Shown: positions 6,786 to 28,672, counted from the stretch's first letter. The stretch: 42,202 nucleotides of DNA from Kiritimatiellia bacterium (GCA_017521065.1 JAFXEA010000519.1:1-42202); one strand, 5' to 3'. The notes: a model not told the origin generated them from the letters alone. A program made the numbers and translations.

Positions 6786-6796
6786 ACCCTTGGGAG

Positions 6797-6835: not shown

Positions 6836-6882
6836 ACTGTGTTAAAAATAGCCCCCCACGTATTCCGCGCAAGTTCCAACCA

Positions 6883-9800
6883 TCATGGGATGATTGCCTT
6901 TAGAAATGATTTCTGAGCTTGTGGCGACAACTGTCTAAACTTCTCAACCAACCAATCAACCCCCTTGCTCTCTAGGTGACGTTCTATTTTGCCGATAAGC
7001 ACGTTAAGAGCCCCTCCATCCTCTTCTCCCACGAAATACGGTGGAGGATTGGATAGTTCTCGCAATGCAGCCTCGGCCTCCTGGAGAGACAACGATTCTA
7101 TTGAGGCGTATTGCAACTTAGCCTGAGCCATCCATTCGGCGGATGCCTTCTTGCGTTTCTGTTTTATAGAGACGACCAGCTTGTCGAATGTTTCGGCCGC
7201 ATCCCAGGGCGGCTCTTCTTCCTCAAATCGAGATACGAGCTCATCTTTCGTCTCCGAAATAAGAATCTCAAACTGAGACTGCGGGATTTGCAGGGAATCA
7301 ATTCTCGTAGCTGCATCTATATAGGCATTGATGAAATTACGTGCAATCCTAAAATCTTCCAGATTAGAGTCATTACCTTGATAAAGGCCCGTCAGATCTA
7401 CAACTTCATCCCGAATCTGTATGGCGGACTCCATCGTCAACTCCATGTTCCAAACAGCAGCAGCACGTTTATCAATTGCCTTCCGAACTTCTTTAAGACG
7501 CTTCTTGATCTCGTCAAGTCGAACTAGTCGATTGGCGAGCTCATCAGCATAATGCTGATTTCCAACACGCTTCATGGTTGCTGAACATGCCTTGATCAAT
7601 TCAACCCACTTATCAGATTCAGCTCCGATTGCATCAAGGCGTGACACGGGCGTTTCGTCTGGAATAGTGCCATTCTGCGCATTCCAAGTGTCAAATTTGG
7701 TTACAGCTTCACGAGCCTGTACAATCTGCTCAAATGACCTACAAACTCGTTCCACCTGTGCAAGAAGCTTCTCCTTCTCATCATACATCTCAAGATTCTT
7801 GAGATTTCGCGCCATACGCTCCTCAGAGTCCCGCTTGAACTCCGCCAAGTCCTGTTGCGTGCTACCATGCGGTTGATTACGTGCCAACCAAGATGGGAAG
7901 AGTGCCGATATCTGAGCCTTGGCCTCATTGATACGAGTTATCAAAGGTTCAATATCTCGCATGATATCCCACATCGGGTCCTTGCGCAACTCCTTAGCAT
8001 GAGTTTGAAGCAGTGATGCACCATATGCTATCAGTGATAGCTTTTCAGCCCTTATGCCATTCTCAATTTTTTGAATGAAGTCGCTTTCTTTTTCTTCCGC
8101 CGCATCTATTGTGTCAAACGCCTTCTTAGACTCGCTTTTACACAACGCTATCTGATGCCGCAATGCGGGTGGTAGCGGTAAATTTGATTCAAGCTCCGAT
8201 ATACGCTCTGAAAATTCGGCCTGTTCTCGATATGTTCCGCAAGAGGCCCAGTCGGAGAGGAGCTGATCCCACGCCCCATTCTCTCCCGTCATCCGATACA
8301 GAGTTATTCCTTTAAGATAAACGAGATCTAACGAGTTTCCTAAGAACGAACTCTGGGCAATCGTTTCAAGCCCAACTGGTACCCCCTCAAACTGGGCTTG
8401 GATAACTTTTTGATACGCCTGAATGAATACTCCCCAAAGCAACCCCGCCGAAGCAATGTTTGCACCATATGGAGCCGAACAAGCAATCTTTATCGCCTCT
8501 GCGCAATTTAACCCGTCTTGAAGCGAGAGCTGCTTCTCCCATTCGGCCATGATTGCCTTTACAACCAGGTTACCCGGCTTCTGGACGACAGACCCGTCGC
8601 TTTTAGAGAAAACGCGCCAAGCAACATTAAGAACTGCTTGTGCACGATTCCTTTGCGCCACCCCCATCGTTTGCGTATCACTATATGACAAATCACTAGA
8701 AATCAACCGGCGGGTAAATTCGGCACAATCCTTTGCCGCATTTCCTCTAGGTGTCGCGTAACCATCAAACGGGAACGCCAGTACTTTAGGATATGCTGCC
8801 TCGAAGAGCTGTAGTTCCATCATCGCCAAGCGATTTGGTTGTATGTCTTCAAATGGCGTAACGTAATTCCGCGCCATAAGCGCTTGGCGCACAGAATCAT
8901 CCAGGACACGACGCTGTTTCTGTTCATGCGATGCAATCAGTTGCCCAAATCTCGCTTTCTCATCTGTAGTGAGTCGAGATAAAATATCCAAGTCCACAAG
9001 AGCCTTGGACATATTGTGCTCTGAATCATCCTGCACAAAGATCAATAAAATAGGCCTATGCCGTGCAAACTTCTTGAGCTGTTTTTGAGCGTGCTCCTTA
9101 ACGGCTTCTATATCCTCATTTGCCGGGACATAGCAATGTATCATCAAGCCACGCGCAGATTCAACGCTCTGAAACTCTGTATTTTTCTCTAGTTCAGAAG
9201 CTATGGCACCAATGGTCAGGAGGAATCTCGTCCAGTAAGTCGGTTTTTCTTCAAACCTCCATTCCGGCGTGATGATACTGTGCGAATTGGCAAAAGAACA
9301 CTCGGGCGGGGTAAGAACCGAGATGGTGGAAGCCAAACCGCAGAATACTTCAGCTTGCCGATCAGCATCGTACTCCTGCGCTTTTTGACGCATCAAGTGC
9401 AAGAACTGCGGCTTAGAGGCATTATCACTCAGTATCTCATAACTGCGCGAAGCGTTATCCCATTCTATGACGTTACAATCATCTTGAAGCGTTGCGATTG
9501 CTTTGCTAAGCGAATTCGGCTCTAGACCAGAAAACACACCTAGTGCATAGTCTGCCTCAGCCCTTGATCCAGCACGTAATTGCGTTTGAGAAAGCAATAC
9601 TATGGCACGAAGAACATCTTTCTGTTCCGATGTCAAATGCGCATCGAACTTGGCACAGACGGCATTGTACGATTGTAACAGAGTTCCATGTACGGAGTCC
9701 TCTTCTATGCTTTCAAACTCTTGCTGTAAGTCTTTTGTCCACAACCGCACCGGAGGAAGCGCCGTGTCACACACGAAAGAAGCATTAGCGTCAAGAGCAG

Positions 9801-11118
9801 ACTTCAATAATGTCAAAGCCGAACGTTGCTGTAAATATTTACCAGATGATGATAAATAAAACAACACCCACATTGCCACGGGAGACAGCGGCCAGCATCC
9901 TGACACAATAACCCGGTTAAACATGCCTGGATCAGCCCAGGTCGAATAGTTCTGCGATACGGGATACCAGGATGCTATCTTATCTCGAATAATGTCAGCC
10001 TCCTTGAGGTCAATCTCAGGCGTGGTATTTTTCTGAAGAAGGCTTGCTATCAGTGTTTCGAGGTTACTAGAAAGGTATAACTTCTCCGCATTGTCGAAAC
10101 GCGTGATGAAGCGATTCATTTCGTTCTTGAATTCACTCGGCAACCGCTGTGCGTATGCCTTAAGTTCATATTGAACAAATCCAACAAACGTAACCTTTTC
10201 ATCATTCCCTTGCACACCCTCAAAGAGGTGTTGCAAGGCTCCATCTCCGGCGATCTGGGGATGCGAAGTGGCATACTCCATATAATGGCCAAACTCATCA
10301 AAGAGAATAACCATATGTGCATATGGCTTCCCCTTGCCAACGAATTCACGAACGGCAATATTAATTACATCTTTCGCGGTCTCGTCATTAACAGCAGCGA
10401 GAGGGATACCGATATCGGCGAGAAATGCATGGGTCTTTTTGTAGACAATCTCATCAAAGGAATCAAGACGGGAAATGACATCTTCCTTACTTCCCAGCCT
10501 ACACTCCTCCACAAGACGGCTTGTTAGCCTCTCATCTAGGTTATGGAGTAGCGTTGACGCATGCTTAAAACGCTTCCGAAGGTTCTCCAACTTGGTCGCA
10601 TCATGACCATCCGCAGAAACCTTAGCACGGATTTGAGAAAGAAGAACAGATGACAAGTCACTGTTGTTCATGCCGTTCAGCGTAACAACCAACACCCTGC
10701 CAATATTCTTACATGAGCGAGCTACCTCAGCTCCGATACGATTGTCAGCCTGCGCGATGTTCTTCAAGATATTTGCATGCAGTTCTCGATCCTCAGACGA
10801 AAGTAATTCGGAAATCGTAACCGCCAAATGGGATTTACCACTGCCAAATCCTGCAATCGCAAGCGTAAAGGCATTCCCCGTTGGACTCTCCACACGACTA
10901 ACAACACGTTGAACAAAGGATGCCGTATCAATAAGCTTATGCGAAGAATCCCCAATATCTTTTTGGGAAATACCATGACTTGACGGGCCGTGGAACACAA
11001 AGGACGTGGCCGCTTTAGCAGCTTTCCCTGAGCCATCAATGAGCCAATCTACATCAATCGCCCCATTGAAAAGACGATCAATGTTAAACTCAACGATATC
11101 TCCAAGTTTCTTTGACAT
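6883..11118 (-). CDS. Giant P-loop ATPase, SspC/BrxC/PglY-like (DUF499-like) N-terminal half plus long helical C-terminal half (~1411 aa); second copy in this operon
   Basis: ATG 11118 shares its A with the upstream TAA (TAATG), with GAGGAG about 8 nt upstream.
Walker A is 'AIAGFGSGKSH' (about 10825-10860) and Walker B is 'MVILFDEFG'.
It aligns by eye to the SspC-like protein at 22641-25949: 'AFTLAIAGFGSGKSH' vs 'AFTLTGPYGTGKSS', 'MVILFDEFG' vs 'VFFIFDEFG', and 'VTFVGFVQYE' vs 'VFFMGMLHQS'. Confidence 0.65.
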   Translation of the reverse strand: MSKKLGDIVEFNIDRLFNGAIDVDWLIDGSGKAAKAATSFVFHGPSSHGISQKDIGDSSHKLIDTASFVQRVVSRVESPTGNAFTLAIAGFGSGKSHLAVTISELLSSEDRELHANILKNIAQADNRIGAEVARSCKNIGRVLVVTLNGMNNSDLSSVLLSQIRAKVSADGHDATKLENLRKRFKHASTLLHNLDERLTSRLVEECRLGSKEDVISRLDSFDEIVYKKTHAFLADIGIPLAAVNDETAKDVINIAVREFVGKGKPYAHMVILFDEFGHYMEYATSHPQIAGDGALQHLFEGVQGNDEKVTFVGFVQYELKAYAQRLPSEFKNEMNRFITRFDNAEKLYLSSNLETLIASLLQKNTTPEIDLKEADIIRDKIASWYPVSQNYSTWADPGMFNRVIVSGCWPLSPVAMWVLFYLSSSGKYLQQRSALTLLKSALDANASFVCDTALPPVRLWTKDLQQEFESIEEDSVHGTLLQSYNAVCAKFDAHLTSEQKDVLRAIVLLSQTQLRAGSRAEADYALGVFSGLEPNSLSKAIATLQDDCNVIEWDNASRSYEILSDNASKPQFLHLMRQKAQEYDADRQAEVFCGLASTISVLTPPECSFANSHSIITPEWRFEEKPTYWTRFLLTIGAIASELEKNTEFQSVESARGLMIHCYVPANEDIEAVKEHAQKQLKKFARHRPILLIFVQDDSEHNMSKALVDLDILSRLTTDEKARFGQLIASHEQKQRRVLDDSVRQALMARNYVTPFEDIQPNRLAMMELQLFEAAYPKVLAFPFDGYATPRGNAAKDCAEFTRRLISSDLSYSDTQTMGVAQRNRAQAVLNVAWRVFSKSDGSVVQKPGNLVVKAIMAEWEKQLSLQDGLNCAEAIKIACSAPYGANIASAGLLWGVFIQAYQKVIQAQFEGVPVGLETIAQSSFLGNSLDLVYLKGITLYRMTGENGAWDQLLSDWASCGTYREQAEFSERISELESNLPLPPALRHQIALCKSESKKAFDTIDAAEEKESDFIQKIENGIRAEKLSLIAYGASLLQTHAKELRKDPMWDIMRDIEPLITRINEAKAQISALFPSWLARNQPHGSTQQDLAEFKRDSEERMARNLKNLEMYDEKEKLLAQVERVCRSFEQIVQAREAVTKFDTWNAQNGTIPDETPVSRLDAIGAESDKWVELIKACSATMKRVGNQHYADELANRLVRLDEIKKRLKEVRKAIDKRAAAVWNMELTMESAIQIRDEVVDLTGLYQGNDSNLEDFRIARNFINAYIDAATRIDSLQIPQSQFEILISETKDELVSRFEEEEPPWDAAETFDKLVVSIKQKRKKASAEWMAQAKLQYASIESLSLQEAEAALRELSNPPPYFVGEEDGGALNVLIGKIERHLESKGVDWLVEKFRQLSPQAQKSFLKAIIP

Positions 11119-11987
11119 TAGATGAACTCCTCGTACAGACGTGCCCAAAGTTGCGCGGAACTAAGCTTAAAGCATACGATCCAAGGCTGCATATGACGAT
11201 CAATAGATATCAACCCTTTGTCTTCCATAAGCCCCAACATTTGTTGGGACTCGGACAACGTCCACCCGGTGACTGAACGGAAACCACACGTATCCTCTAA
11301 GTCATCAACGGTCAACTGATTCTCCGTCAATCTACCAGAACGCTCCATCAGGTCAGAAAGCCAGGCCGCATACCCAATAGCATAAGCATCTAAAATTGGT
11401 GCCTTCCGCCGAATGACGAGTGCATTGTCCAATCTAACCGCTGCACATGTCATAAAAGACGCAGGCTCTTCGTACATTCTGAATGTTGGAGACAACGCTT
11501 TTGCAGCATCATTTGCACCAGTCTCGGTAATCATCCATTTCAAGAAGTCATCGTACAGAAACGAATTCCCAAAACTCAAAGCCCCGTTCCAGAACATCTG
11601 ATACCACAACTCCGCACCAAACGACTTGTTGCACAGATATAAGTGTGCGATCCATTGGGTTAGCTCTTCTTGTAAAAACCTATCACCCAAATATACAGCA
11701 CGACCAAAATTCGTCAAAACAATATTGTAGCGTTTTTCCTTCTTCTCACCGACCTGCTGCAATCGAACAAGCCCCATCCCGACAGCATAATCAGCAGTAG
11801 GTATGGCCTTGCCACTTGACTTGCCGGTGGGAATGCCTGTCTCACTGGCGATAGCATGCATCTCATATACCCCAGAATTAGCTGCATACTTAAGCATCGC
11901 GCCAAGATACTGTTTCTCTGGGATAAAGGTAAGATGAAAATTCTTAGCCAGCCGTTCAGACCTTGTCTTTTTCGATTTTACCGCCAT
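11118..11987 (-). CDS. Divergent DUF4007/SspB-like protein (~289 aa); second copy in this operon
   Basis: ATG 11987 lies 1 nt after the TAA of the upstream gene (the track start at 12008 is TTG).
It aligns by eye to 25946-26833: 'FHLTFIPEKQYLGAML' vs 'GHQTFVFRHGWLEKGV', 'LTNFGRAVYLG' vs 'LTNFGEYIFG', and 'LTQWIAHLYL' vs 'ATLWLLHYNL'. The length is nearly identical. Confidence 0.55.
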   Translation of the reverse strand: MAVKSKKTRSERLAKNFHLTFIPEKQYLGAMLKYAANSGVYEMHAIASETGIPTGKSSGKAIPTADYAVGMGLVRLQQVGEKKEKRYNIVLTNFGRAVYLGDRFLQEELTQWIAHLYLCNKSFGAELWYQMFWNGALSFGNSFLYDDFLKWMITETGANDAAKALSPTFRMYEEPASFMTCAAVRLDNALVIRRKAPILDAYAIGYAAWLSDLMERSGRLTENQLTVDDLEDTCGFRSVTGWTLSESQQMLGLMEDKGLISIDRHMQPWIVCFKLSSAQLWARLYEEFI

Positions 11988-11988
11988 T

Positions 11989-14900
11989 TTAGAAGCCACG
12001 CTCCTCAAGGGAAGTCACCTTGATCTTATGAACCTGATTTGTAAAATTCCCATTTGCAGTATTCAGTGCCGGGCCGATGGATAGACACTCACCTTTACTT
12101 AAAGAGGTAAGCATCATACGCCACTGGTTTTTATCACCACCTCCTGCAGCCTGAGCGACGAAATCGGTGTACTGGTTGATTTCTGGATCGGCAGGCCGGA
12201 AGAACAACTTATGCCCAGACTGAAACAGCCGAGCCTGCTCGTCTTTCTTAAGGTTACTGAGAGTCTGCGTCGCCGCCATCACACAAAGACCAAACTTTCG
12301 CCCTTCGGTCAGATACTTTCCAAGCGGAGACTCCAACCGTTGATCAAGGTTCTGAACCTCGTCAAGCACGACAATCCGTGGATTCTTCTCTGACCCCCCA
12401 CTCGAGGCAAATGCCCACAAGTCCCACAGAATAAACTCAGTAAGAATACGTGCGGTACTGCGATCAATCATAACCATCTGAAATACTTGGCAACGCTTCA
12501 CAGTATCTGCAAACAGCTCGCTCCAACCCATTAAGGAATCTGCTTTGAATGGAGCTTCATCAATGAATGGCTTGAGCTTGTTCGCCAGCGTCTGAACTGA
12601 CGGCTTTGGATGAACACCATCATCCATAAACGACTGCAAGATAGGAAGCACCTTTTCAAGTGACATCTTTTCCTTGTAGCTTTCCAAGCCCTGCTTCAGT
12701 GCATCAATCAAAACACTGACCTGTTGATCCCCCATCTGATACACGGAATCAAATATTGAAGTCACACGCTTTGCGACATCAATATCACCTTCTTCGATAG
12801 GCGAGCCTAACCCAATGTCCTGCGACTGCTTCTTAAACGGATTGATAGGCAATTTGTTCTGCTTAACGACATTCTGCTGTGGCTGAAGAACTGCATTAGT
12901 AGTTGCCTGAAGCTGATTTGGTAAAAATCCGTTTGTATAATCAATTATCAAGCTATTCTGCCCCTTACGCCCAAGCTCGCAAAGGATAGCTTGGATTGCA
13001 TAAGTTTTACCCATCCCGGAATTGCCAAAAATTAAGAAGTGCCGGTTGTTTAGTTTAGGATGACCAAACTCCCAGAATATCTCTCGTCCATCTTTGGTCT
13101 TGCCAAGAAGGACACGATCAGCTATCCCACCAGCAGGAAGCACTGTGGGTAGAGGTTGTTGCTGATCAACCGCTTTAACCATCTCCTCTGCTTGCACAAC
13201 ACCAGTAGAAGATTTCTCCTCTACGGGGATTTCAGAAGAAGGAATCTGCGTTGTCAACTGCTCTTCCTCATCAACATCCTCAACAGGCAGTGTTCGCTCC
13301 GGCATTTCGTCATCTTCTCCTGATACCGCCGCAGCTTGTAACACAGGATCGCTCCACTTCAATGTCGGCGAAGTCTCATCCGCGCATAAGCGATAAACGA
13401 ACTTACAACCCGCTTCATAAACCGGGATCTCATATTCTTCATCATCAAGATTGAATGTGCGGCGTTCATTGCACTTCATTTCCCCAGATTCTGAGTCTGT
13501 CCAAAAAGCAAAAATACCTGCACCCCATTCAATCTCAAACTCACCAGCAGCAAGACGCTCCATCGCCACTAAGTATTTCGCCATATCCGACGATTCTGTC
13601 AATCGAACGCTCCCCGCGATCATTCGATGCAACTGTAAATACCAATAGCGCTGATCAGGCCTGTTTGCGCTGCCAAAACCGAAATCGCCTTGCAAAGCCG
13701 CCACATTCTTTGGGCGAAACACTTCAGATAGGACCTTAAGTCCATTCTGAATCTGCATGCTCGCCTTTTCAAGATGTTCATCATTACGGTTCGCCATCTT
13801 GCATTCGATGAGCTTGGCTTTTATCTGAAGATGCCCATTCTCAGAAATATTAGCACGTAGCCACAATAAATCAGGATGGGTCTTGTCCTCTTCGCTCACT
13901 TGATCAAACCAGTGACTATATGCATCTATTGAAAAAATGCGATCACAAAGATTTCCACTCTCGTCAAGAGGAAGAATTCTATGCATCAGACTATAGGCCA
14001 TGAAATCGCGAACATATTCCGAAGGGCCGAGCGATCTGATCATCGACAGACCCGCGAGTTCCGTAGCCTCGTGCAACAACGTCTTCGCAATAACCTCAAA
14101 TTGCTCTGGCTTCCCGTATTTATAAACTTGTCCCATCGATGACAGCAACTGCTTGTGGATTGTATCAAACGAATATTTTTGAGTCGAGATCGTGTAATTC
14201 TTCTCCCCATGAAGGCCGACACCAGACCCAAATCCTATTAGTTCGCGTTTTGCCTCCGACTCAGGACCAAGCGCAAGGAGCGCTTTATCAATTAACGCAT
14301 CAATACAAACCACCCATTCAGATGACTCATGTGCATTATCTATCACCGTACGCCACGGGGTATAATCACCGGTAGCCAGAACAATGTGATGCGTGTTCTG
14401 CTTACAACTGGTATCGCGCAACCGGGCAATCACCTCGGTATGATGTGTACAAATCTTAAACTGTCTGTTGCTGACAATCTGTGACCGTTTACAAATCTCA
14501 TCAGGCGTTGTCTTTGCGCATTGCGACTGTTCAAGGATCGGAAACTTAATGGATGCCTTCGTGATATCGAACTCTTCCGTTACCTGAAACACACACCCCT
14601 GGCTGTCCGGCTTGATAAAGTTATAGAACACGAATATATCCGCATCAACTTCTTTTTTGATCGTGTCCGCAAATTGTTTGTACTGATCATCATGCCGAAT
14701 AATACGATGAGAGACAGTAAACCGCATTGCAGCATAGTCCGAATCGTCCTCCTCTGCATCATCTAGGAAGTCTTGCCATTGCGACAACCAGTTTGCAACA
14801 ACACTTGTATCAGATGACTCGGAGAAGAACACAACCTTCATCGCATACTTCTCGGGTCTTTCGTTATCTTGCAGTCGAGCATCTCTCGGCAGCCATTTGG

Positions 14901-17265: not shown

Positions 17266-17277
17266 AATATGACCTCC

Positions 17278-18936
17278 TTAGCCATTCGCCTGGGTGTAGG
17301 GGTTCTTTACGAGCGAACAAGAGTCGGATAGACGAACCAGAACCCCAGAAGCGTCCAACATTCTTTCAAGGAACTCATTCGATGCATCATTGCCATCCAG
17401 CTCCGACTTGCGCGAGACCCAATTCCGAGAAGCTACCAATCTGCCAAGATCAAAGACAAATCCATGATGAGCTTCCATCTGTTTCTTAAATGTCTCGAGC
17501 GTCATCCGTTCATTTGGTATGAGGGAAACAACGAGATACCTGAGAATCTTGTCATTTAGGGTATAGCGCATCCATCGGCCTGTTTGCGGCACAATCAATC
17601 CAATACTTTTGCCAATCTTTCTATAGAGCTTAAAACCATACGAATCCGCATCCTTATAAATGCTGGCGACTTTCTTCTCGCGTTTCTCAGGCGTAGGCTC
17701 TTTGGCTGCAATCGCCTGAACCCGTTGCCGCGTTTCATCAGTGCGAATAGCCTGCTGGATAACTTTCACAACCTCGCTGAGCGATTCGGTCGAGAATTTC
17801 TTTAGCTTTCTCTTTCTCGACATTGAATCACATAACAATATTCGATAGTCAAATCCATCATCCTCTTCGCACGGAACTTGAGAGTGTCGATAGCTCTGGG
17901 TGGCCAAAGTTCGCATCACTTGCATTGCGCACGCTATCATTAGCATGTCAGCCGTCTCCATCACGCCGATCTTGGCAGCAAGAATTCGTTTAATTTCAAC
18001 GGCGAACAGGTATCCTTCGCGCCATGATTCGCGTGGTATCCACCCGCACTTAATGCTACGGTCTTCGCCGCCAGAACTATCAGAGACGTCAGAAGTTGCG
18101 GCATCGACACCGGTATCGACAAACTGCATGACCTTTTCAAGACTACCTGTATGAGAGAAGTATTCACCCAAGAGCGCTTCAATCTCATCCCGGAGGCGCT
18201 GAGGGTTCTTTTCATCCTCGCGCAACCCAATAGGAACTCCTCGTTCCTCGCGCTCGCGAAGCCATTGTGCGACTTCATCTTGCGTCTGTGTCAACGCGTT
18301 GCATATCTGCAAGTACAGGGCTTCACCACCGCGACATAGAACGACATGTTGATCGAGGCCGAAACAATTTGGAAACTTGTCGAGCATGTCCTGCCACGAC
18401 GACAATTTCTCTCGCTTAGCTGGGATGGCCTTCCAAATCACCTCCGCGCACAATGCCGTTTTACAAAAAGGGTAGAATGTTTGTGCGCACCATGTTCTTT
18501 TCGAGCCGGTACCCCAAAACCCCAGAAACAAACTACTCAATGTCTGCAAGAAATCTCGCTTGTCATTTTCGTCATCCAAATCGAGTTTGGACCCAAGCAG
18601 TTGAAGCAATTCGTCTCCATGCTGCCTGTGAATCGGATGCCTAGTGGCAAGCGGAGAAGAACTGAGGAATGAAAACAGCTTCAGGTTAATACGGCACTTG
18701 GGGTAATACTGAAGCGCCCTAGACTGCTCGCGCCATTCAAGAAGTTCCTCATTCTTGGGCAAAAAACCACTAAATCGATCAAAGACTTTTTTATCAGAGG
18801 TGGCAACCAGAAGGAATTCTGACAAAAGGTCCATAACCTGCTGATCATCGCAAAAGCGGCGACCAAACATGCGGATGGACGGATTCGCGTCGTCTATCTC
18901 GTCCTCTTTGTAAACTTCTTTGGGAAAACTAATCAT
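17278..18936 (-). CDS. dptG: DptG/DndG-like protein (552 aa); assigned by position and size only
   Basis: ATG 18936 with a GGAGGT RBS and an 8-nt overlap with the upstream gene. I see no catalytic motif by eye. It sits between the F-like and H-like genes. Confidence 0.4.
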   Translation of the reverse strand: MISFPKEVYKEDEIDDANPSIRMFGRRFCDDQQVMDLLSEFLLVATSDKKVFDRFSGFLPKNEELLEWREQSRALQYYPKCRINLKLFSFLSSSPLATRHPIHRQHGDELLQLLGSKLDLDDENDKRDFLQTLSSLFLGFWGTGSKRTWCAQTFYPFCKTALCAEVIWKAIPAKREKLSSWQDMLDKFPNCFGLDQHVVLCRGGEALYLQICNALTQTQDEVAQWLREREERGVPIGLREDEKNPQRLRDEIEALLGEYFSHTGSLEKVMQFVDTGVDAATSDVSDSSGGEDRSIKCGWIPRESWREGYLFAVEIKRILAAKIGVMETADMLMIACAMQVMRTLATQSYRHSQVPCEEDDGFDYRILLCDSMSRKRKLKKFSTESLSEVVKVIQQAIRTDETRQRVQAIAAKEPTPEKREKKVASIYKDADSYGFKLYRKIGKSIGLIVPQTGRWMRYTLNDKILRYLVVSLIPNERMTLETFKKQMEAHHGFVFDLGRLVASRNWVSRKSELDGNDASNEFLERMLDASGVLVRLSDSCSLVKNPYTQANG

Positions 18937-20689
18937 TGCTTACCTCCAGACCTTCTTCTGTGACATTCACGGAGACTGTTGAAAGCTTCCCGTTTTCCTG
19001 GTGCTTCAAAATGAGAAGTCCATCTGATTCGCGCTCGTGCAGATTATAGACGATCTGTGCCATCAGCTTCTCAAGTCGGTCTCGGTACGATAGACTTAAG
19101 CCTCTTCCAATCGCGCCTTCTTTCCGTGTAACGATGTAGTCCAAGAATGATAGATTTAATTCCAAATTGACCCCAGACAGATTCCCTATGCCTACAAGCC
19201 ACGGGGTGTTTCTTGCATCTGTCCTAATCTTGAGCTTAAAATTCTCCGAAAAACTAAACCGCCTTAAAACAAGTTGCGCACTCTGCTTGATCTCTGGACT
19301 TTTACGACGTAGCGTTATGTAGAGATCTTTTGTCTGAGAAGAACCTTCTAGGGGCAAGACCCCACAGAACTCCTCCTGGAGAACCGAAAACAGCGCTGGC
19401 AACAAAGATTTAGCCTTGAACGTTTCTGGGTGGAGCTGCCAATTCCTAAACTTAAGTATCATCGGCGAATCCAGAAACGCGACTTCAAATCTTTCATAAT
19501 CTTTCATAGCATCTACATTTTGCGCATCCGGCTCATGCAAAAAGAAGATCATTCGTCTCCAGACATGGCGTGCGTGTGCCGCCTCTTGGGGTTTCGAGAC
19601 TCTGCGGGCACGCTTTAGAACACGGGCAGCATCACCAGCAATTTCTGGGACATCCTGGAAGCACGGCATGTTCTCCGTTGAATCCCAGAACTTCCTTTCA
19701 AGTGATGGAGAGAACTGCGAATTAAGATGTTGTTCAACAAAAACGCGAATCGCTTTCATTTGACGTGCACCAGGCTCACCATTAAGCCCATCGTCGCCCC
19801 AAAAACGGTTCACAAAGAGGTAACGCTCCATTGGTCCTAGATCTCCCATTAGAGCCTTATTCTGGATTGTCGTACAGTCAAGTGCAGCCGTCAGCATGTA
19901 AGAGAAATGCGCACTGATCTGACGCATGGTCAATCGTTCCCCATATGCATATGTCCTAAAGTACAAAAGCCGGATGCGATCCAGTACGCGATTGCGGTAC
20001 TTTGCGATAAGTAATCGGTTCCGCAGAATCGGACAAGCATCCTTACAAGCACATCCAGCGCAATTAGACCATTCCGACGACTCAACCATTCTTTCCAGGA
20101 GCTTCAACCCAAGATCCACGTTGTCATATTGCGCAAGGTTATAAACGCTAAAACCAACCCCGAGCACCATCGACTGTTTCTGCGATGAATCAAGTGCTGT
20201 CAGTAAATCATTCTCAACCTCTATCATTGATTTACCAAGCCTATCAGACCGCCGTTTAAAGAAATCCAGAAGTGTACCTGTATTTGAAATGAGGAGATAA
20301 CGTTCACCCGACAGTAATTGAATGAAAATGTTTTCACGAGCAGACTCAGTGCATTCGCTCAGGTCTTTGACAACTGTAACTCGACGGCCATCAAACACTA
20401 CCGTTTCTTCTCTCTGGAGTCCATCAGGAAGAATCTTGTCTTTCTCAATCTTCTTTAGGCGCTTTAGTATTTCAATCGCAATCGTTGACTTCCCGTCTCC
20501 AGCGTGACCAGACAATATTACTGACCTCCCGTCGGCAGAGACAAGAGAATCAAATATTTCCTGCGCCCACGGGTGATCAACTTGAAGCTGGGAAAACAAT
20601 GGCTCTTTTGCCTGAGACTCAGCAAGTGCACCCTTGTTGTTTGCATCACCGGAATGCAACGTGTTCAAGTATGAAACAAATGAATTCAT
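18929..20689 (-). CDS. dptF: DptF/DndF-like P-loop protein (586 aa)
   Basis: ATG 20689 is in an ATGA overlap with the sspA-like stop. N-terminal Walker A is 'SGHAGDGKST'. A mid-protein Cys cluster reads 'CAGCACKDACP'. It is the first gene of an F-G-H-like triplet. Confidence 0.5.
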   Translation of the reverse strand: MNSFVSYLNTLHSGDANNKGALAESQAKEPLFSQLQVDHPWAQEIFDSLVSADGRSVILSGHAGDGKSTIAIEILKRLKKIEKDKILPDGLQREETVVFDGRRVTVVKDLSECTESARENIFIQLLSGERYLLISNTGTLLDFFKRRSDRLGKSMIEVENDLLTALDSSQKQSMVLGVGFSVYNLAQYDNVDLGLKLLERMVESSEWSNCAGCACKDACPILRNRLLIAKYRNRVLDRIRLLYFRTYAYGERLTMRQISAHFSYMLTAALDCTTIQNKALMGDLGPMERYLFVNRFWGDDGLNGEPGARQMKAIRVFVEQHLNSQFSPSLERKFWDSTENMPCFQDVPEIAGDAARVLKRARRVSKPQEAAHARHVWRRMIFFLHEPDAQNVDAMKDYERFEVAFLDSPMILKFRNWQLHPETFKAKSLLPALFSVLQEEFCGVLPLEGSSQTKDLYITLRRKSPEIKQSAQLVLRRFSFSENFKLKIRTDARNTPWLVGIGNLSGVNLELNLSFLDYIVTRKEGAIGRGLSLSYRDRLEKLMAQIVYNLHERESDGLLILKHQENGKLSTVSVNVTEEGLEVSND

Positions 20690-21834
20690 GAGAGTAGCTC
20701 CTTCAACCTTGATGTGGCCCTTGAAATCTCCATGATAGCATAATCAATTTCCTCCTCAGTCGTCTGCGTAGAAAGCGAAACCCGGATCGATGAAAGAGCT
20801 TCGTCGTCCGAGACACCCATCGCCTTCAGTACATCAGAGGGGGCAACCTCCTGGCTATTACAAGCCGACCCAGTGCTGATACAGAGGGTAGGCAAATTTG
20901 CTATCAACATGTCAGCAGGAATCCCGCATAGGGCAAAGTTACTCGTGTTCGGCAAACGCTCTGCCCTGTCACCATGAAACACACACGGCAGGCCCGATGC
21001 CACAAGACCTAGCTCGAAGCGCCGCAGCAATTCAGACATCTCATGGATCTTCGCATCTGACGGTAACATGCGCATAGCCGTCGCCATCCCGACAATACCA
21101 GGAACATTGACCGTCCCAGGGCGTAAACCATGCTCCTGCCCTCCGCCTTTGTACGCGAAGACAAAAGGAAACTTCATCGAACCTGACGCAATATATATGA
21201 AGCCTACACCTTTGGGACCATGTATCTTATGCGCACTAAACGACGCACTATCGACGCCAAGCTCCTGCAGATCAATTGTCATCTTTCCGAGCGCCTGAAC
21301 AGCATCGCAATGAAAATAGGCCCCATGTTCATGCGCCAACTCAACCAAGTCACTAACAGGTTGCAAGACCCCCGTCTCGTTATTTGCCAACTGAACGGAA
21401 ACAAGCCCAATGCTGTCGTCTATCAGCATGCGCGCCTTATCGACATCCACTATTCCATCAGTATTAACAGGTAGTTTCACGACATCAAACCCAAGCGGAG
21501 CAAGCGCCTCCGCAGCCTTCAATACTGACTTGTGCTCTATTGCGCTAACCGCCACCCGCTTGCGGACAGCCGGTGTACGCGCGTAAGAAGAGAAGATAAA
21601 GTTATTACCCTCAGTTGCCCCAGAAGTAAAGAATATCTGATGTGGTCTAGTCCGAACCGTCGCGGCGATATCCTCTCGGCATTGTTCAACAACACCACTC
21701 GCCTTGCGTCCAGCTTGATGAATGCTCTCAGTATTACCAAACACTTGAGACCAATAGGGCATCATCGATTCGACCACCGCCTGATAGCAGGCAGTAGTTG
21801 CATTATTATCAAGATAGACGAGACCGTTGATCAT
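20686..21834 (-). CDS. sspA: Cysteine desulfurase (NifS/IscS class V), SspA/DndA role (~382 aa)
   Basis: ATG 21834 is in an ATGA overlap with the upstream stop (the track start at 21852 is GTG). PLP-lysine motif 'SFSAHKIHGPKGVG' and catalytic Cys loop 'STGSACNS'. Confidence 0.8.
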   Translation of the reverse strand: MINGLVYLDNNATTACYQAVVESMMPYWSQVFGNTESIHQAGRKASGVVEQCREDIAATVRTRPHQIFFTSGATEGNNFIFSSYARTPAVRKRVAVSAIEHKSVLKAAEALAPLGFDVVKLPVNTDGIVDVDKARMLIDDSIGLVSVQLANNETGVLQPVSDLVELAHEHGAYFHCDAVQALGKMTIDLQELGVDSASFSAHKIHGPKGVGFIYIASGSMKFPFVFAYKGGGQEHGLRPGTVNVPGIVGMATAMRMLPSDAKIHEMSELLRRFELGLVASGLPCVFHGDRAERLPNTSNFALCGIPADMLIANLPTLCISTGSACNSQEVAPSDVLKAMGVSDDEALSSIRVSLSTQTTEEEIDYAIMEISRATSRLKELLS

Positions 21835-22631
21835 AGCTGACACATCATACACGGAGCGCCCCCCGTGTCCTCCTCTACAAACACATCCTTTAGGCCAAGG
21901 TTAGCCTGTGACTTTTTCTGAGATGCGACACGTTTGGCGTACTGGGCTTTGATCTCTGCTATACGTTCTGGGCGTGCTAGTTCTGCCAAACTTTCACCTT
22001 CCACCCACGTAAAGCGCTCACCAGTCAGTGGATCGGACTTTTCATACGCCATCGCCCTCTTGAAAAGATCTGGATGGCGCTCTAGTAACCCAACCCACTC
22101 TATCCGTTGTTGGAAAAAACAGAAGAAACATCCTGACCTAGACCGCCATTGGTAATAGGACGGGACGCCGACACCCGAGTCTTCCAGAATCTTAAACACA
22201 TCATCCTTGCGGATGTTATTCTCAACAAACGGATAAACGGCGCGGACACGTTCACTAGTCGCAATATACCCTGTGCGATAGGGCTCATCCGCACGGATTC
22301 CAACGTAGCTAATCACCCGATCATTTCCAATAAACTTCTCATACGGCTTTATCTTTAACATGCGAGTGCACCAACGTGTACGGGCATCAGGCAATACACC
22401 ATTGTAAAGGGCCAAATAATGCTTAAACGGTCTGTCAGCGTTTATCCTTGTAATTTTCTTGCCGAGGAAGAATTCAAGCTTATCGAGATATTCATATGTT
22501 TCCTGTAACTCGTCTCCTGTGTCACAGAACACATACTCCATCTCGGGAACCTTTCCCTTCATAAATACCGCCAGTGCAGAAGAATCCTTGCCGCCTGACA
22601 GTGATAAGATGTGTCTTACCTTTTCCGACAT
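21831..22631 (-). CDS. sspD: PAPS-reductase-fold PP-loop ATP pyrophosphatase, SspD-like (266 aa)
   Basis: PP-loop 'LSLSGGKDSSA'. Cys motifs 'SGCFFCFFQ' and C-terminal 'CMMC'. From memory it is short relative to DndC. It is flanked by SspC-like and SspA-like genes. Confidence 0.7.
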   Translation of the reverse strand: MSEKVRHILSLSGGKDSSALAVFMKGKVPEMEYVFCDTGDELQETYEYLDKLEFFLGKKITRINADRPFKHYLALYNGVLPDARTRWCTRMLKIKPYEKFIGNDRVISYVGIRADEPYRTGYIATSERVRAVYPFVENNIRKDDVFKILEDSGVGVPSYYQWRSRSGCFFCFFQQRIEWVGLLERHPDLFKRAMAYEKSDPLTGERFTWVEGESLAELARPERIAEIKAQYAKRVASQKKSQANLGLKDVFVEEDTGGAPCMMCQL

Positions 22632-22640
22632 TCAACACAC

Positions 22641-25600
22641 TCACTTTCCTTCAAGCTCTTCAAGGCACGCCAGCAACGCAGCTCGCATGACAGCCTTTCC
22701 ATGTTTCTTGGAGATCGCAACGATACTTGTCTTAACGGAGTCCGCAGCCTTCTGCTCGGCCTTAGAGAGACTAGTCGAAACATAAGCATACGGTCGCGCC
22801 GCCGCCATAACGCGCTCCCCCACACCTAACACATTCTTCTTAAATTCGGCAATTTGACTTGCCCCCCACTTTGAGATTGGCATCTGCTGGATGTATGAAA
22901 CAACAACATCTGCCTTCTGCCAGTCACCAGCCGTATTCACGACGTTTTGCAAGAAGGGACAGATGTCAGATCCACCGATCCGAGCGATCAAGAATGATGA
23001 CTTGTCGTAAAGGCTCTTCCATCCCTCAGGAGTCGGTTCATATCCACAAGCCTCAAGCAACTGCCGTCTACTTTCCTCTATTAGCTTCGGCAGCGCTGCC
23101 GCAAGTTCATGCATACAATTGTTGAGCCGCTTAAAGAATTCATTATAAACTAGGGCCTTCGCACTTTTTTCTCCTATCGGCTCCATTCCTAAGGATACAG
23201 GAATTGATGTGAACAATAACTTTTCTGGCGAACGAGCATCAAAGAACGCCTGTCGAAACGTCTGAGCCTGTTCGCTTACGGCGTTTGTCTCACGGGCATA
23301 TTTCGATAAAGAGTTCATCATCGTATATAGCCTACGAACAACAGGTAACACTCGAGGTTCTGTCTGCAGCCCCCCGGATAAACGTTCAACTATATCTTTT
23401 CTCACACCCGAAATCCTCATACCGGAAAGAGCAAAGAGTTCTGGCCGACGAAGTAACAACTCAAAATGTGCTTCCTGAGGTTCGGGCACAAATGTTCCCT
23501 CAGCATAGAAAGAAACCTCGTTTTTATTAACCGCATAAAAAACCGCTACAAGAATCGGTGCCAGGCCCTCCAAGACACCCAATGGCGGCTTGGCAAGTTC
23601 GTCGTATAAAGCCCGAAGTGATATCGGCTCCTTGCAATCAAATACCAGTCTTTCGAGCGTCTGCCAAGCAGGAAGCAGATGACTAGGAGAACGTCCACTA
23701 GGAGACGATAATACATACCTGCCATTCACACATCGATGCATCCCCGACATAGCCACAACAGATTCGTAGATGCTACGCTCTGGAGGGTAACCCTCAATTC
23801 CGAGGCGCGGCAAGGCAACAGAATCTGGTGAGTTTAACAAGTTGATAAGAATCCTTCGCGCAGCAGCAGCCTGCGATGAGAGGACACGCTTGTTGACCAA
23901 TTCATTTCTTACGACTGGCGCATCAGGATACAAGACATCGCAAATATCAGAGAATTGTACTGAGACATCACGCATTGTCCTAAGTGCTATGACCTCACCG
24001 TTCCAGACATACTTACACCCACCGCCGCCAAGCCGTGCCGGGCGGGGATCTAATATTCCGCTCTGATGCTGCCTAACAGCCTGCGTCGCAACAGCGAGAC
24101 GTATCGCAACCTCTCGAGACGCGATCCTGTCATCTCGCAGCTCCTTGACGTTCATCGCTACCCAGTTCAAACGACGGATCTCTAGCAACGCGTCTGTCAA
24201 ATCGGAGATCTCTCCTGGTATAGCAACCGCTAGAGAGCGATCCTTCTTGGTCGCAGCGATGGCTTCCGTCTCAAACCAATTACGCCATTTAGGGAGGTCC
24301 GTAAGGCAAACAACAAGAGTTCCGCAAGCACTTGACTTATCTGGCCTCTTCAACTTAGAAATTTGATCCGGGTCGTCTACATAAACCGTATCAAAATAGC
24401 GCATCGAGCCCTTCAAGACGGTATGGCGCTTTGCAACAATCGGCGTTGGAGGCACAAACTTTCTAAATGTCTCAGCAACAGAAAAATGCTCTCCGCGCAA
24501 TTCTGCATTAGCATTCTCACAGCATTCATCAAGATTGATGTCACTGCCATTCCAAAGCGCAAACGTCTTGTTGAACTTACGATAAACGAGAACAGACTGA
24601 GCGCGAAGCGTGGAGAGCGCCGCCCCGAGATCCTTTGGAGCCATTGCAGCAGCGACCATCTCCTCCGAAGCATGAATCGGACTCTGAAGGCCAAGCGAGG
24701 TCAAGACAGCCACTGTTTTGAGAGTCTCAACCTCAATAGGGGAAAGCGATGCTTTCGCCTGAATGGCTGCATGAGCTTCAACAAATGGATGTCCAAAAGA
24801 CCTACGGACAAGTTGCGCCTCGTAGTTTTCAAAGAAGTAATCAAAGAGATCGCACAAGCGGAATAGATCCCCATCCGGCGCATGCTTAAAGAACTCGCGC
24901 AGACCCTTAGCCTCGTTACTTGTTAAGAACGAAAAAATAGACCTCTCATTCTGTCCAAACCTCCTGAACAAAAGCGGCAATGCTGCTAATGTAATTGGAT
25001 GGAGCGGTAAAGCGCGAGTCGCATAGCTTGCAAATTCCGTAGATTTAAGACCAACAAGCGAGGCCAACTTCACTTCCTCAATTGGTCCCTTGATCAACTT
25101 TGCGCCAATAGGACTCTTTGAAAAAGGATTGCAGTCCGGGAATGCCGATGCTGCAAGGTGTATCTGTGCAGCAACAGGTTCAATGAACGCGATAGGCTCA
25201 AAACGACCCTCTATCTTGCTAAACTCGTTGCGAAGTATGGTCTCGGTCGCAGCATAATCAGCGATACTTTGATGCAGCATACCCATGAAGAAGACACGCA
25301 CCTTGGTACTTCTTGACGCTGCCTCGGCCAACTCCTGAAGTAAAAACACATCAACGCGTCCACTCTCGCGGCGAGCCTCTTCAAATATCTTGCCGAACTC
25401 ATCGAATATGAAGAACACTCCCGTATACCCCATCTTAGCAATGTGGTCAACACAGAACCTAAGAAGACGCATCGAACATTTCGTGTCTCTTGAAGCTCGT
25501 AATTCGTCTATGGCACGAGACATTTCTTCTGGCCACTTCAAGTCAACACCATCAAAAGCGTCCGCCAATAATTCGGCTACAGGTGCACAACGAGCTGTCA

Positions 25601-25949
25601 AGGTTAGGGCTAGACAACCTTTGCCCGCTTTCCTGCCCCAGACCGCCCCCCTGAATGAGTCAGCAAGAGACTTGTCTGCCTTCGCAAGCATTGTCCACGC
25701 GGCATCGTTCTTATCGCTCAGCAAATGCCAAAGAAACAATCCGAAAGACGACTTCCCCGTTCCATACGGCCCAGTCAACGTGAATGCTCTCTCGGTAATA
25801 CTCTCCACAAAAGCGGCCTGGATGCGAGCCAGCGCATTACGTACAGAAGGAGTGATGACATACCCGGCCAATCCATTCTTGATTGAACGGTCCCTCCCCA
25901 GATTCACCGATCTGAGAAACCGGCGATTCATCTCTAGTTCGTGATTCAT
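22641..25949 (-). CDS. sspC: SspC-like (DUF499-type) ATPase (1102 aa)
   Basis: ATG 25949 is in an ATGA overlap with the sspB-like stop. Walker A 'TGPYGTGKSS' (about 25745-25780) and Walker B 'VFFIFDEFG'. Confidence 0.65.
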   Translation of the reverse strand: MNHELEMNRRFLRSVNLGRDRSIKNGLAGYVITPSVRNALARIQAAFVESITERAFTLTGPYGTGKSSFGLFLWHLLSDKNDAAWTMLAKADKSLADSFRGAVWGRKAGKGCLALTLTARCAPVAELLADAFDGVDLKWPEEMSRAIDELRASRDTKCSMRLLRFCVDHIAKMGYTGVFFIFDEFGKIFEEARRESGRVDVFLLQELAEAASRSTKVRVFFMGMLHQSIADYAATETILRNEFSKIEGRFEPIAFIEPVAAQIHLAASAFPDCNPFSKSPIGAKLIKGPIEEVKLASLVGLKSTEFASYATRALPLHPITLAALPLLFRRFGQNERSIFSFLTSNEAKGLREFFKHAPDGDLFRLCDLFDYFFENYEAQLVRRSFGHPFVEAHAAIQAKASLSPIEVETLKTVAVLTSLGLQSPIHASEEMVAAAMAPKDLGAALSTLRAQSVLVYRKFNKTFALWNGSDINLDECCENANAELRGEHFSVAETFRKFVPPTPIVAKRHTVLKGSMRYFDTVYVDDPDQISKLKRPDKSSACGTLVVCLTDLPKWRNWFETEAIAATKKDRSLAVAIPGEISDLTDALLEIRRLNWVAMNVKELRDDRIASREVAIRLAVATQAVRQHQSGILDPRPARLGGGGCKYVWNGEVIALRTMRDVSVQFSDICDVLYPDAPVVRNELVNKRVLSSQAAAARRILINLLNSPDSVALPRLGIEGYPPERSIYESVVAMSGMHRCVNGRYVLSSPSGRSPSHLLPAWQTLERLVFDCKEPISLRALYDELAKPPLGVLEGLAPILVAVFYAVNKNEVSFYAEGTFVPEPQEAHFELLLRRPELFALSGMRISGVRKDIVERLSGGLQTEPRVLPVVRRLYTMMNSLSKYARETNAVSEQAQTFRQAFFDARSPEKLLFTSIPVSLGMEPIGEKSAKALVYNEFFKRLNNCMHELAAALPKLIEESRRQLLEACGYEPTPEGWKSLYDKSSFLIARIGGSDICPFLQNVVNTAGDWQKADVVVSYIQQMPISKWGASQIAEFKKNVLGVGERVMAAARPYAYVSTSLSKAEQKAADSVKTSIVAISKKHGKAVMRAALLACLEELEGK

Positions 25950-26833
25950 GCCTTAACCCCATAATAATCGTCAAGCAACTTCTGGGCAAAGACACCCCGT
26001 TTGTTGTTGCCAGAAAATTGAATTGAGTTTAAACCTGCCGTGTCGGTAAACGCAAACTTACCTCTGGTAATCCGTTCAAGTTCTTCTACTGCATCGACAA
26101 TAGCATTATCATTAAGTTTGAAGATCTGCCCCGGAGACCCAACTGCATATGTCGCATTGTAGAGGTTGATTGACGAACTGCCCTCACCCATTTGGTTTAA
26201 CAAAGCATACCCGATTAGTTCGACAGGAAGATTCTGCTTGGGACCAATGTTCATCCGAAACAAATCAGGGTCTACCGTCGGCTGAACAAGTGACAACGCG
26301 AGAAGCGGGCAATCAAAACTTTCTTCAAGATTTTTACTTTTCGTCCCTACATATGTGTGGATGAAACAGTCAATATCGCGCTCAAGCGTCTTGTCGGACA
26401 CAGACACCTTTCCTGCAAGGTACCGTTGTATAAACGCGAGCAATTCCGCCTTGGAAAACTCCGGCTTGTTAAGAGAGTTTATTGCAATGCTCAAGGCAGA
26501 CTCAGGTGCTCTCGCCACCAAATTGTAATGCAACAACCAAAGCGTAGCGTCATCTTCAAGGTACGGATCTACTCCAGCATCCTTCTCTCTGCCAAAGATG
26601 TATTCCCCAAAATTCGTTAATTGCATCGAACCTGGCTCTGGCGCTTCCTCAATCAAACCCGTTTGAGAACACCAGTACTTGATACTCTCGACCATGTTCT
26701 TTCCAACACCAAGAGCGACGATTGCATCGTCTGCAAGAAACCCTCTGGGATTCTCGCGAATCAGTGCAACGCCTTTTTCCAGCCATCCATGCCGGAACAC
26801 GAATGTCTGATGTCCTGAGAACCTATAGCTCAT
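25946..26833 (-). CDS. sspB: DUF4007 protein, SspB-like (295 aa)
   Basis: The N-terminal 'RFSGHQTFVFRHGWLEKG' matches the DUF4007 signature as I remember it (H-x-(S/T)-F...R.GWL.K). It is the first gene of the operon. Confidence 0.65.
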   Translation of the reverse strand: MSYRFSGHQTFVFRHGWLEKGVALIRENPRGFLADDAIVALGVGKNMVESIKYWCSQTGLIEEAPEPGSMQLTNFGEYIFGREKDAGVDPYLEDDATLWLLHYNLVARAPESALSIAINSLNKPEFSKAELLAFIQRYLAGKVSVSDKTLERDIDCFIHTYVGTKSKNLEESFDCPLLALSLVQPTVDPDLFRMNIGPKQNLPVELIGYALLNQMGEGSSSINLYNATYAVGSPGQIFKLNDNAIVDAVEELERITRGKFAFTDTAGLNSIQFSGNNKRGVFAQKLLDDYYGVKA

Positions 26834-26882
26834 AACTGTTTCTGCCTTTCAAGATGTTTTATTTTCACCGCTTTAAAACAAT

Positions 26883-27737: not shown

Positions 27738-27747
27738 GGCGAAAATA

Positions 27748-28631: not shown

Positions 28632-28672
28632 TGCGGGCGGTTCGCCCTACGGGTGTGATCGCAACAGGCGGG

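Follow-up and report, generated by a model that had tools for sequence, protein, structure and literature searches.

Diverged SspB and SspC paralogues in the predicted restriction arm of a phosphorothioate defence operon from a Kiritimatiellia bacterium

Why should a phosphorothioate (PT) defence locus encode its DNA-recognition protein and its large ATPase twice? The question is raised by nine consecutive minus-strand genes at positions 6883-26833 of a 42,202-nucleotide contig from a Kiritimatiellia bacterium (GCA_017521065.1, JAFXEA010000519.1), the whole of which we refer to as the window. The first four genes specify a predicted Ssp-type PT writer, the next three (F, G and H) distant homologues of the SspF, SspG and SspH restriction proteins, and the last two (T1 and T2) what appear to be diverged copies of the writer's own SspB and SspC, designated here SspB' and SspC'. 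How DndFGH- and SspFGH-type systems sense PT is described as 'poorly understood', with only 10-15% of sites modified (PMC12914056). We propose that the nine genes constitute one PT-based, restriction-modification-like defence operon in which SspB'C' serves as a reader or loader, and we put the probability of this reading at roughly 0.6. That an Ssp writer is joined here to an integral restriction arm of five genes is very probable, and the arm has five genes, not three, because a second and diverged copy of the writer's recognition/ATPase pair has been added.

All nine open reading frames (ORFs) are intact and tightly coupled, with no internal stops in the reading frames and with starts refined from the junctions (Table 1). 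ATGA overlaps are present at 25946-25949, where sspC adjoins sspB, at 21831-21834, where the sspD stop meets the sspA start, and at 20686-20689, and F and G share an 8-nucleotide (nt) overlap, ATGATTAG, at 18929-18936. A 9-nt spacer occupies 22632-22640, and a 12-nt spacer, GGAGGTCATATT, lies at 17266-17277, the AAGGAGG there borrowing the last two bases of the G stop codon; the remaining junctions are TAAAATG at 11985-11991 and TAATG at 11116-11120. A preliminary description of the window had reported nine minus-strand ORFs with tight junctions, and every junction re-read as it was given there.

The first four genes are unambiguous, by profile comparison, as an SspABCD-type PT writer. SspB matches the PADLOC SspB model (6.3e-78), Pfam DUF4007 over its full length (2.7e-79) and canonical plasmid SspB in hhalign (100%, E 1e-73). 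SspC matches the PADLOC models for SspC (2.9e-262, residues 8-1048) and BrxC (1.9e-184) and aligns with canonical SspC (hhalign 100%, E 2e-148). SspD is recognized by its PADLOC model (1.5e-113) and by Pfam PAPS_reduct (1.6e-12), and carries the PP-loop SGGKDS, with SGG.DS present in 52 of 54 family members. SspA scores almost equally with PADLOC SspA (1.1e-119) and DndA (1.7e-118) and matches Pfam Aminotran_5 (2.7e-71); it is found in 19 of the 39 related loci that have sspB, sspC and sspD.

The relationship of F, G and H to known restriction proteins is more distant. As references we used the canonical sspABCD-sspFGH loci of Agrobacterium plasmid pAtK224b and of a Pseudanabaena plasmid, both from PLSDB, whose F, G and H proteins match the PADLOC models over their full length (2e-246, 3e-219 and 0), whereas the window proteins give only partial matches: F to SspF at 1.1e-26 in its N-terminal half, G to SspG at 5.5e-20 in its C-terminal part, and H to DndH at 1.2e-55 (residues 1362-1676) and to SspH at 7.2e-18 (970-1287). 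Family alignments extend these similarities, with F aligning to canonical SspF over nearly its full length (hhalign 99.8%, E 3.6e-28), G to canonical SspG over residues 22-550 (99.5%, E 3.4e-22), and the central region of H (622-1254) to canonical SspH (98.1%). These alignments identify the three proteins as remote homologues of the SspF, SspG and SspH restriction proteins. G has no Pfam, NCBIfam or PDB sequence match. The F Walker A motif, G.AG.GK[ST], is present in 125 of 125 homologues; a candidate CxxCxCxxxC motif in the same protein was dropped, being conserved in only six of the 125.

H is predicted to combine a PD-ExK nuclease with a DndH/DptH-type HerA/FtsK translocase. The putative nuclease motif comprises D1114, P1131-D1132 and E1154-C-K1156 and aligns with the D...D...EAK residues of canonical SspH; no substitution occurs at these positions, at the Walker A lysine or at the Walker B DE in any of 108 homologues. 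An AlphaFold2 model places D1132 and E1154-x-K1156 on adjacent beta-strands (predicted local distance difference test, pLDDT, 84-93). Foldseek searches with this model returned only the motor domain, and the nuclease assignment therefore rests on the invariant motif, the SspH alignment and the modelled strand topology. The motor itself (residues about 1360-1758) matches the DptH C-domain structure, PDB 7ES4, both in sequence (4.5e-13) and in Foldseek (3.8e-16), and has no confident alignment with the canonical SspH motor (hhalign 19% probability). We note that H (window 11989-13200) has the appearance of a motor-domain swap, with a DndH/DptH-type motor on an SspH-like remainder, and this agrees with the suggestion that HerA/FtsK domains were 'captured' repeatedly in the case of DndH.

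The last two proteins resemble the writer's SspB and SspC more closely than anything else we compared them with. Among PADLOC models, T1 and T2 match only those for SspB and SspC, together with a marginal match to BrxC (6e-4), and the T2 match to SspC (2.9e-16) covers only the N-terminal ATPase. With family alignments built from the related loci, T1 aligns with the SspB family over residues 18-277 against 8-277 (hhalign 98.5%, E 1.6e-15), and T2 with the SspC family over residues 69-913 against 36-819 (99.8%, E 1.5e-29). The T1 model is of high quality (pLDDT 93, predicted template modelling score 0.91), and Foldseek matches it significantly only to two crystal structures of SspB, 6JUF and 6LB9 (probability 1.0, TM 0.64). 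The T1 score against Pfam DUF4007 (PF13182; 4.7e-5, 23.1 bits) falls below the cut-off of 27 bits, and many of its homologues carry a precomputed PF13182 match. We regard it as a divergent DUF4007 member on the strength of its modelled fold and profile alignment, although it misses the curated threshold. T2 has a Walker A GxGKS and a Walker B DE that are invariant in 71-72 of 72 sequences, and a tail of about 500 residues (about 914-1411) that does not align with SspC, shows marginal matches to long coiled-coil proteins and is probably coiled-coil itself. Because of these profile and fold matches we take T1 and T2, on sequence and modelled structure, to be diverged paralogues of the writer SspB/SspC pair.

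General-purpose databases say little about the pair. T1 has no NCBIfam match, T2 has neither a Pfam nor an NCBIfam match, and Pfam scans of 13 T2 family members gave none at E <= 0.1; a precomputed table lists PF19557 (DUF6079) for three T2 homologues. Searches of PDB sequences with family profiles returned nothing for T1 or G and only P-loop or coiled-coil noise for F and T2. The preliminary description had listed a cysteine desulfurase, a PAPS-reductase-fold enzyme, a DUF4007 protein and a large ATPase, all of them correct when compared with PADLOC, Pfam and NCBIfam, as were its P-loop protein, unknown protein and giant HerA/FtsK ATPase; and its second DUF4007-like/ATPase pair is borne out as SspB'/SspC'. 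It had also pointed to a system for sulfur modification of the DNA backbone that includes a restriction arm, for which both the writer and the SspF/G/H homologues are identified by PADLOC and hhalign.

Do the nine genes belong together? We examined two samples of related loci, one anchored on T2 (214 loci in a one-genome-per-species collection, 80 of them fetched) and one anchored on F (at least 285 matching metagenome contigs, 80 fetched); the F search patterns were derived from T2-linked loci. The order G-H-T1-T2 is found in 58 of 59 T2-anchored loci with enough upstream DNA, the exception (L065) still having H and T1, and T1 follows H in 38 of 39 F-anchored loci with DNA beyond H, a figure that describes this clade and not all SspFGH systems. 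Median gaps are -8 nt between H and T1 and 15 nt between T1 and T2. SspB, SspC and SspD are encoded upstream in 34 of 38 F-anchored loci with at least 7 kb of upstream DNA (about 89%) and downstream in 3 of 28 T2-anchored loci (about 11%), which leaves the module almost fully linked to the writer. BCD(A)-F-G-H-B'-C' is the predominant order, and since it recurs across many phyla the 'composite' block of the preliminary description is not an ad hoc assembly.

Pairwise distances between homologues fall into two blocks. T1 correlates with F, G and H at r values of 0.90-0.93 and with T2 at 0.95, values within the F/G/H/T1 set are 0.90-0.96, and SspB correlates with SspC at 0.98, whereas T1 against SspB, SspC and SspD reaches only 0.51-0.66. 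It follows from this pattern that the SspB'/SspC' pair shares its history with the restriction arm and not with the writer.

These observations bear first on whether an SspABCD-SspFGH system has simply come to lie beside an unrelated BrxA/BrxC-like pair within a defence island. Defence genes do cluster, the flanks of the block include an HNH gene and two AAA_14/DUF4143 ATPase genes, and the HNH neighbourhood varies between contigs. However, the genes are arranged in this way in 214 genomes at species level and in at least 285 metagenome contigs, from many phyla, the coding junctions overlap or nearly so, and the five restriction-arm genes have diverged in a correlated manner; synteny and co-evolution together rule out a chance juxtaposition of separate systems, to which we leave next to no weight. 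They bear also on a proposal that SspB'/SspC' is a second site-selection module of the writer, sharing SspD and SspA and steering PT to a second motif. Such a role would suit full-length paralogues of the writer pair with intact ATPase motifs, and in two loci (L053 and L078) sspD is directly downstream of T2, but the pair co-evolves with F/G/H and not with SspB/C/D, stays at the 3' end of H whether the writer is upstream, downstream or inverted, and in the T2-anchored sample never stands beside SspBCD without F-G-H, so that we consider this proposal improbable.

The five-gene arm has a broad distribution. Carriers include Kiritimatiellia, Lentisphaeria, Planctomycetota, Desulfobacterota, Acidobacteriota, Cloacimonadota, Chloroflexota, Bacillota, Bacteroidales and others, most of them anaerobes by appearance, and several are cultured strains, namely Syntrophorhabdus aromaticivorans UI, Desulforamulus putei DSM 12395, Desulfofundulus thermosubterraneus DSM 16057 and Desulfobacter latus AcRS2. 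Among 1.84 billion representatives, 238 clusters at 50% identity (E <= 1e-10) belong to the T1 family. The clade was not found among PLSDB plasmids, where protein searches with T2 returned only SspC and those with H only DptH ATPase domains, and a scan of viral contigs with a T2 profile gave no relative. A blastn search of E. coli genomes with sspD DNA, made for the canonical sspBCD-FGH locus, gave no match.

The closest known relative is the SspABCD-SspFGH system, in which SspABCD installs single-strand PT, for example at 5'-CpsCA-3', and the canonical SspFGH of Vibrio anguillarum FF-93 damages non-PT DNA, is toxic without SspBCD and discriminates PT in a sequence-specific manner (Wang et al., mBio 2021, PMC8092258). 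The likeness lies in the same writer genes (SspB, SspC, SspD and SspA/IscS), a restriction arm alongside the writer, an F protein with a Walker A motif, a homologous G, and a giant H with a PD-ExK-type motif and a C-terminal FtsK/HerA-like ATPase. The differences are five conserved genes as opposed to three, with SspB'/SspC' added (the two canonical loci examined lack the pair), and an H motor of DndH/DptH type. DndFGH/DptFGH likewise unites an NTPase, a DNA-binding protein and a giant nuclease-motor, and the C-domain of H is closest to that of DndH, although neither F nor G matches a PADLOC DndF or DndG model at E <= 1e-3. The writer here is Ssp-type, not DndBCDE, and the arm is tightly linked to it, whereas DndFGH is often decoupled from its own writer (PMC10853773).

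We also note a locus (L141, 6698-10813) in which the SspF-like protein is 1371 residues long and has a NERD nuclease domain at its N terminus together with two protein-kinase domains. An architecture of NERD plus kinase has also been reported for PglW. A comparable fusion is found in a subset of DndF proteins (PMC12839542), which is a further resemblance between the two types of arm.

How might the nine proteins act together? By homology to the characterised SspABCD proteins, SspA would mobilise sulfur, SspD would activate and transfer it, and SspB together with SspC, a ring-forming AAA+ ATPase, would choose the sites on host DNA. SspC' may load on DNA as an ATP-driven oligomer, and SspB'C' would then be an ATP-dependent scanner that uses the writer's recognition architecture, whether for the writer motif or for PT status. 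It would report to F-G-H, licensing or restraining them, upon which the H motor and nuclease would damage DNA that lacks PT. SspB'/SspC' has no sulfur-transfer partner of its own. An assignment of the pair as a PT reader or loader specifically is one that we offer tentatively, at less than even odds, and we are doubtful of the fuller version, in which SspB'/SspC' would be a writer-derived reader that has lost the link to sulfur transfer, probes the same sites for PT and gates F-G-H.

One feature of SspB' speaks to what the pair might recognize. Within its first helix-turn-helix (HTH), residues 50-60 (window 11808-11840) form the motif TGIPTGxSSGK in place of the GVGKNMV turn of SspB, and T50, P53, G55, G59 and K60 are invariant in 118 of 118 sequences. 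Such strict conservation between phyla suggests a constant ligand, which could be the DNA backbone, PT or a partner protein, as opposed to a variable DNA motif. SspB' is moreover the most conserved restriction-arm protein (mean pairwise identity 0.44-0.47).

There are several considerations that weigh against a PT-based operon with an SspB'C' reader or loader. For this clade, PT modification, restriction and contact between B'C' and FGH are predictions from the genes. The canonical SspFGH functions in E. coli as three genes (PMC8092258), so that PT discrimination does not in general depend on a B'/C' pair. The sampling of F-anchored loci biased the figure of 38 of 39 towards this clade. SspB' and its invariant HTH motif vary less than might be expected of a protein that follows diverse DNA motifs. 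Finally, one locus of the same F/G/H clade (L085) is without the pair and carries, in the position following H, genes for a DUF262 protein and a Ser/Thr kinase, so that SspB'/SspC' may be dispensable or accessory.

This last locus introduces a more general property of the 3' end of these arms. The pairing of a DUF262 (GmrSD_N-like) protein with a Ser/Thr kinase recurs at the 3' end of SspFGH-type arms (Table 1). In the three Kiritimatiellia-like loci closest to the window (L001-L003) it lies after T2, and it stands directly after H both in L085 and in the canonical Pseudanabaena plasmid, the versions being 42% identical; it is sporadic (3 of 37 loci), and the window lacks it. Taken with the fusion variants of F, this placement shows the 3' end of the restriction arm to be a slot that accepts add-ons, of which B'/C' is by far the most constant.

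A modular slot, and a canonical SspFGH that needs no such pair, would both suit the principal competing explanation, which takes SspB'/SspC' for an accessory layer, of 'capture' or back-up type, whose action is independent of PT. The ORC/Cdc6-type ATPase and the multi-winged-HTH (wHTH) protein would bring the HerA/FtsK-nuclease to invading DNA, for example to intermediates of its replication, packaging or conjugation, or would sense phage interference. Systems in which a HerA/FtsK motor, an Orc/Cdc6 ATPase and an SspB/DndG-like multi-wHTH protein are combined do recur (Rakesh, Aravind and Krishnan, NAR 2024, PMC10853773), and the BRC system unites DUF6079, DUF4007 and HerA/FtsK (Rakesh and Krishnan, NAR 2026, PMC12839542). 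The locus resembles the former in having a HerA/FtsK motor, an Orc/Cdc6-clade ATPase, a restriction-endonuclease-fold nuclease and an SspB-related multi-wHTH protein. It departs from them in that they are described as stand-alone, their ATPase carrying an inserted nuclease fold that is inactive, whereas the ATPase here is an SspC paralogue in which no nuclease insert was identified from the sequence (T2 being unmodelled), and in that SspF/SspG homologues and coupling to a PT writer are present; SspFGH is not mentioned in PMC10853773. The near-universality of the pair within the clade (38 of 39 and 58 of 59 loci, as compared with 3 of 37 for DUF262 plus kinase) tells against a capture layer, as does the closest relationship of SspB'/SspC' being to the writer SspB/SspC and not to other BrxA/BrxC or Orc/Cdc6 branches. 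The almost invariable linkage of the module to SspBCD, unlike the frequent decoupling of DndFGH noted above, points in the same direction, and we regard a PT-independent capture layer as rather unlikely.

In favouring a reader or loader we also draw on an analogy with bacteriophage exclusion (BREX), where BrxC is a component of both the modification and the restriction assemblies and controls both activities (PMC13326643). The dual role that BrxA/BrxC plays in BREX would be divided here between two paralogous pairs. SspB' is a DUF4007/BrxA-like protein with a triple (w)HTH, and SspC' a BrxC/SspC-family ATPase with a long tail, a coiled-coil-type C-terminal tail of this kind being described for BrxC (PMC12839542). 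Set against BREX, BREX type 4 and BRC, none of the nine proteins matches PglZ, BrxL, a methyltransferase, a STAND NTPase, GNAT or TGT in PADLOC, Pfam or NCBIfam, and the HerA/FtsK domain here shares one giant, SspH-like polypeptide with the nuclease to which it is fused. BREX furthermore has one BrxA/BrxC-like pair, whereas two are encoded here, one of them within a separate and complete Ssp writer.

Table 1. Coordinates and predicted roles of the features discussed. Positions are those of the window unless another locus is named.
Feature	Coordinates	Strand	Description
sspB	25946-26833	-	295 residues; DUF4007 triple-wHTH DNA-recognition/nickase subunit of PT writer
sspC	22641-25949	-	1102 residues; ORC/Cdc6-clade (BrxC-like) AAA+ ATPase of PT writer
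sspD	21831-22631	-	266 residues; PAPS-reductase-fold PP-loop ATP pyrophosphatase
sspA	20686-21834	-	382 residues from ATG at 21834; cysteine desulfurase
F	18929-20689	-	586 residues; SspF-like P-loop NTPase, divergent clade
G	17278-18936	-	552 residues; SspG-like, divergent clade
H	11989-17265	-	1758 residues; giant effector, SspH-homologous centre with PD-(D/E)xK motif and C-terminal HerA/FtsK motor (domain at about 1380-1750)
T1 (SspB')	11118-11987	-	289 residues; diverged full-length SspB paralogue, triple wHTH
T2 (SspC')	6883-11118	-	1411 residues; diverged SspC/BrxC paralogue, AAA+ ATPase, middle domains and long C-terminal tail
Terminator-like hairpins	6855-6873 and 6566-6581 (span 6566-6873)	-	just past T2 stop; consensus scan, site counts not above shuffled controls
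Gap upstream of sspB	26834-26882	-	49 bp, AT-rich, without recognisable promoter consensus
HNH_2 endonuclease gene	26883-27737	-	284 residues; directly upstream of sspB; context, outside conserved system; PADLOC HNH 1.8e-51
Strict extended -10-like elements	1394-1402, 5519-5527, 6401-6409, 27748-27756, 37162-37170, 37315-37323 (also 3227, 3871, 33026)
DUF262 + kinase pair	L001-L003 about 14250-16520; L085 17853-20123; L163 10774-13018		other loci

The block is also distinct in composition. Its GC content is about 0.47, with 1-kb windows of 0.45-0.50 inside as compared with 0.55-0.68 outside, and GC at third codon positions (GC3) is 0.46-0.52 in the nine genes as compared with 0.65-0.82 in seven flanking genes. 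The block had been described as lower in GC and horizontally acquired; windowed GC and GC3 agree that it is compositionally atypical relative to its flanks, and this fits acquisition of the block by horizontal transfer. We found no att-like repeats of 12 nt or longer flanking the island and no tRNA genes in the window.

Transcription of the nine genes has no obvious start of its own. Consensus scans of the gap upstream of sspB gave neither a sigma-70-like site nor a match to TGnTAnnnT or TGnTATAAT-like patterns, in keeping with the reported absence of TGnTAnnnT there, for which a pattern scan gave no matches. Strict TGnTATAAT or TGGTATACT elements are positioned 7-50 nt 5' of start codons in genes of host-like GC, and none precedes the nine island genes; the loose TGnTAnnnT pattern is weakly enriched in the window as a whole (59 observed, 43 +/- 7 expected). 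An extended -10-like element, TGGTATACT, lies at 27748-27756 upstream of the HNH gene (element and gene together spanning 26883-27756), and a consensus scan of the interval from the HNH gene to sspB on the minus strand revealed no terminator-like hairpin. With neither a promoter-like site in the gap nor an intervening hairpin, read-through into sspB from the HNH promoter is possible. The HNH gene is missing from all 160 related loci, bar one weak and unrelated match, and elsewhere the operon must therefore use a promoter of its own. The hairpins 3' of T2 would be the probable end of the operon, although the evidence for them is weak.

The HNH gene itself has a host-like GC3 of 0.71. Its product scores 48.6 bits against the NCBIfam model PT-DNA_restrict ('phosphorothioated DNA-binding restriction endonuclease'), below the cut-off of 180, and we note that a PT-dependent nuclease adjoining a PT writer would be paradoxical. 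In another contig (L164), an HNH gene more than 90% identical is followed by different defence genes, which fits a variable defence hot-spot; the AAA_14 + DUF4143 family and AbiEi/AbiEii are encoded near it.

Several other features of the flanks deserve mention. Two paralogous AAA_14 + DUF4143 ATPase genes are present in the low-coordinate flank, at 226-1383 and 4259-5494. Between the HNH gene and a divergent ORF at 28103-28906 are seven head-to-tail 22-bp units (27865-28019) in two classes, three copies of the form ...CTCCCTAGGACT and four of the form ...CCCTACACGGG, and together they look like an iteron-like or transcription-factor binding array. A second patch of lower GC (0.49-0.55) at 38000-40500, with ORFs at 38256-39107 (283 residues) and 39097-42195 (1032 residues, with only a weak match to the Reprolysin_3 metallopeptidase family), may be another acquired segment. 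Several of the extended -10-like elements are only 7-10 nt from a start codon, and because of this short distance we suggest that leaderless or very short-leader mRNAs may be used in this Kiritimatiellae genome.

In the full-text literature, most subscription journals being outside our reach, we found no account of an SspFGH-type arm with a pair of SspB/SspC paralogues, and the five-gene arm is, as far as that literature shows, a new and widespread variant of a known Ssp system. Current annotation has a gap here: in this metagenome-assembled genome NCBI (MBR6588277-92) labels T1, T2, F, G and SspC, five of the nine, as 'hypothetical' and H as an 'ATP-binding protein'. PADLOC-DB 2.0, Pfam and NCBIfam all under-call the clade, and counts of PT-based defence in anaerobes and in lineages of the gut or rumen are therefore probably too low. 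SspB'C' is a concrete and testable candidate for a PT reader, kept in the restriction arm across many phyla. If it is indeed a writer-derived reader, it would provide the first molecular handle on how FGH-type systems discriminate modified from unmodified DNA, and would show the dual role of BrxA/BrxC in BREX split into modification and restriction paralogues.

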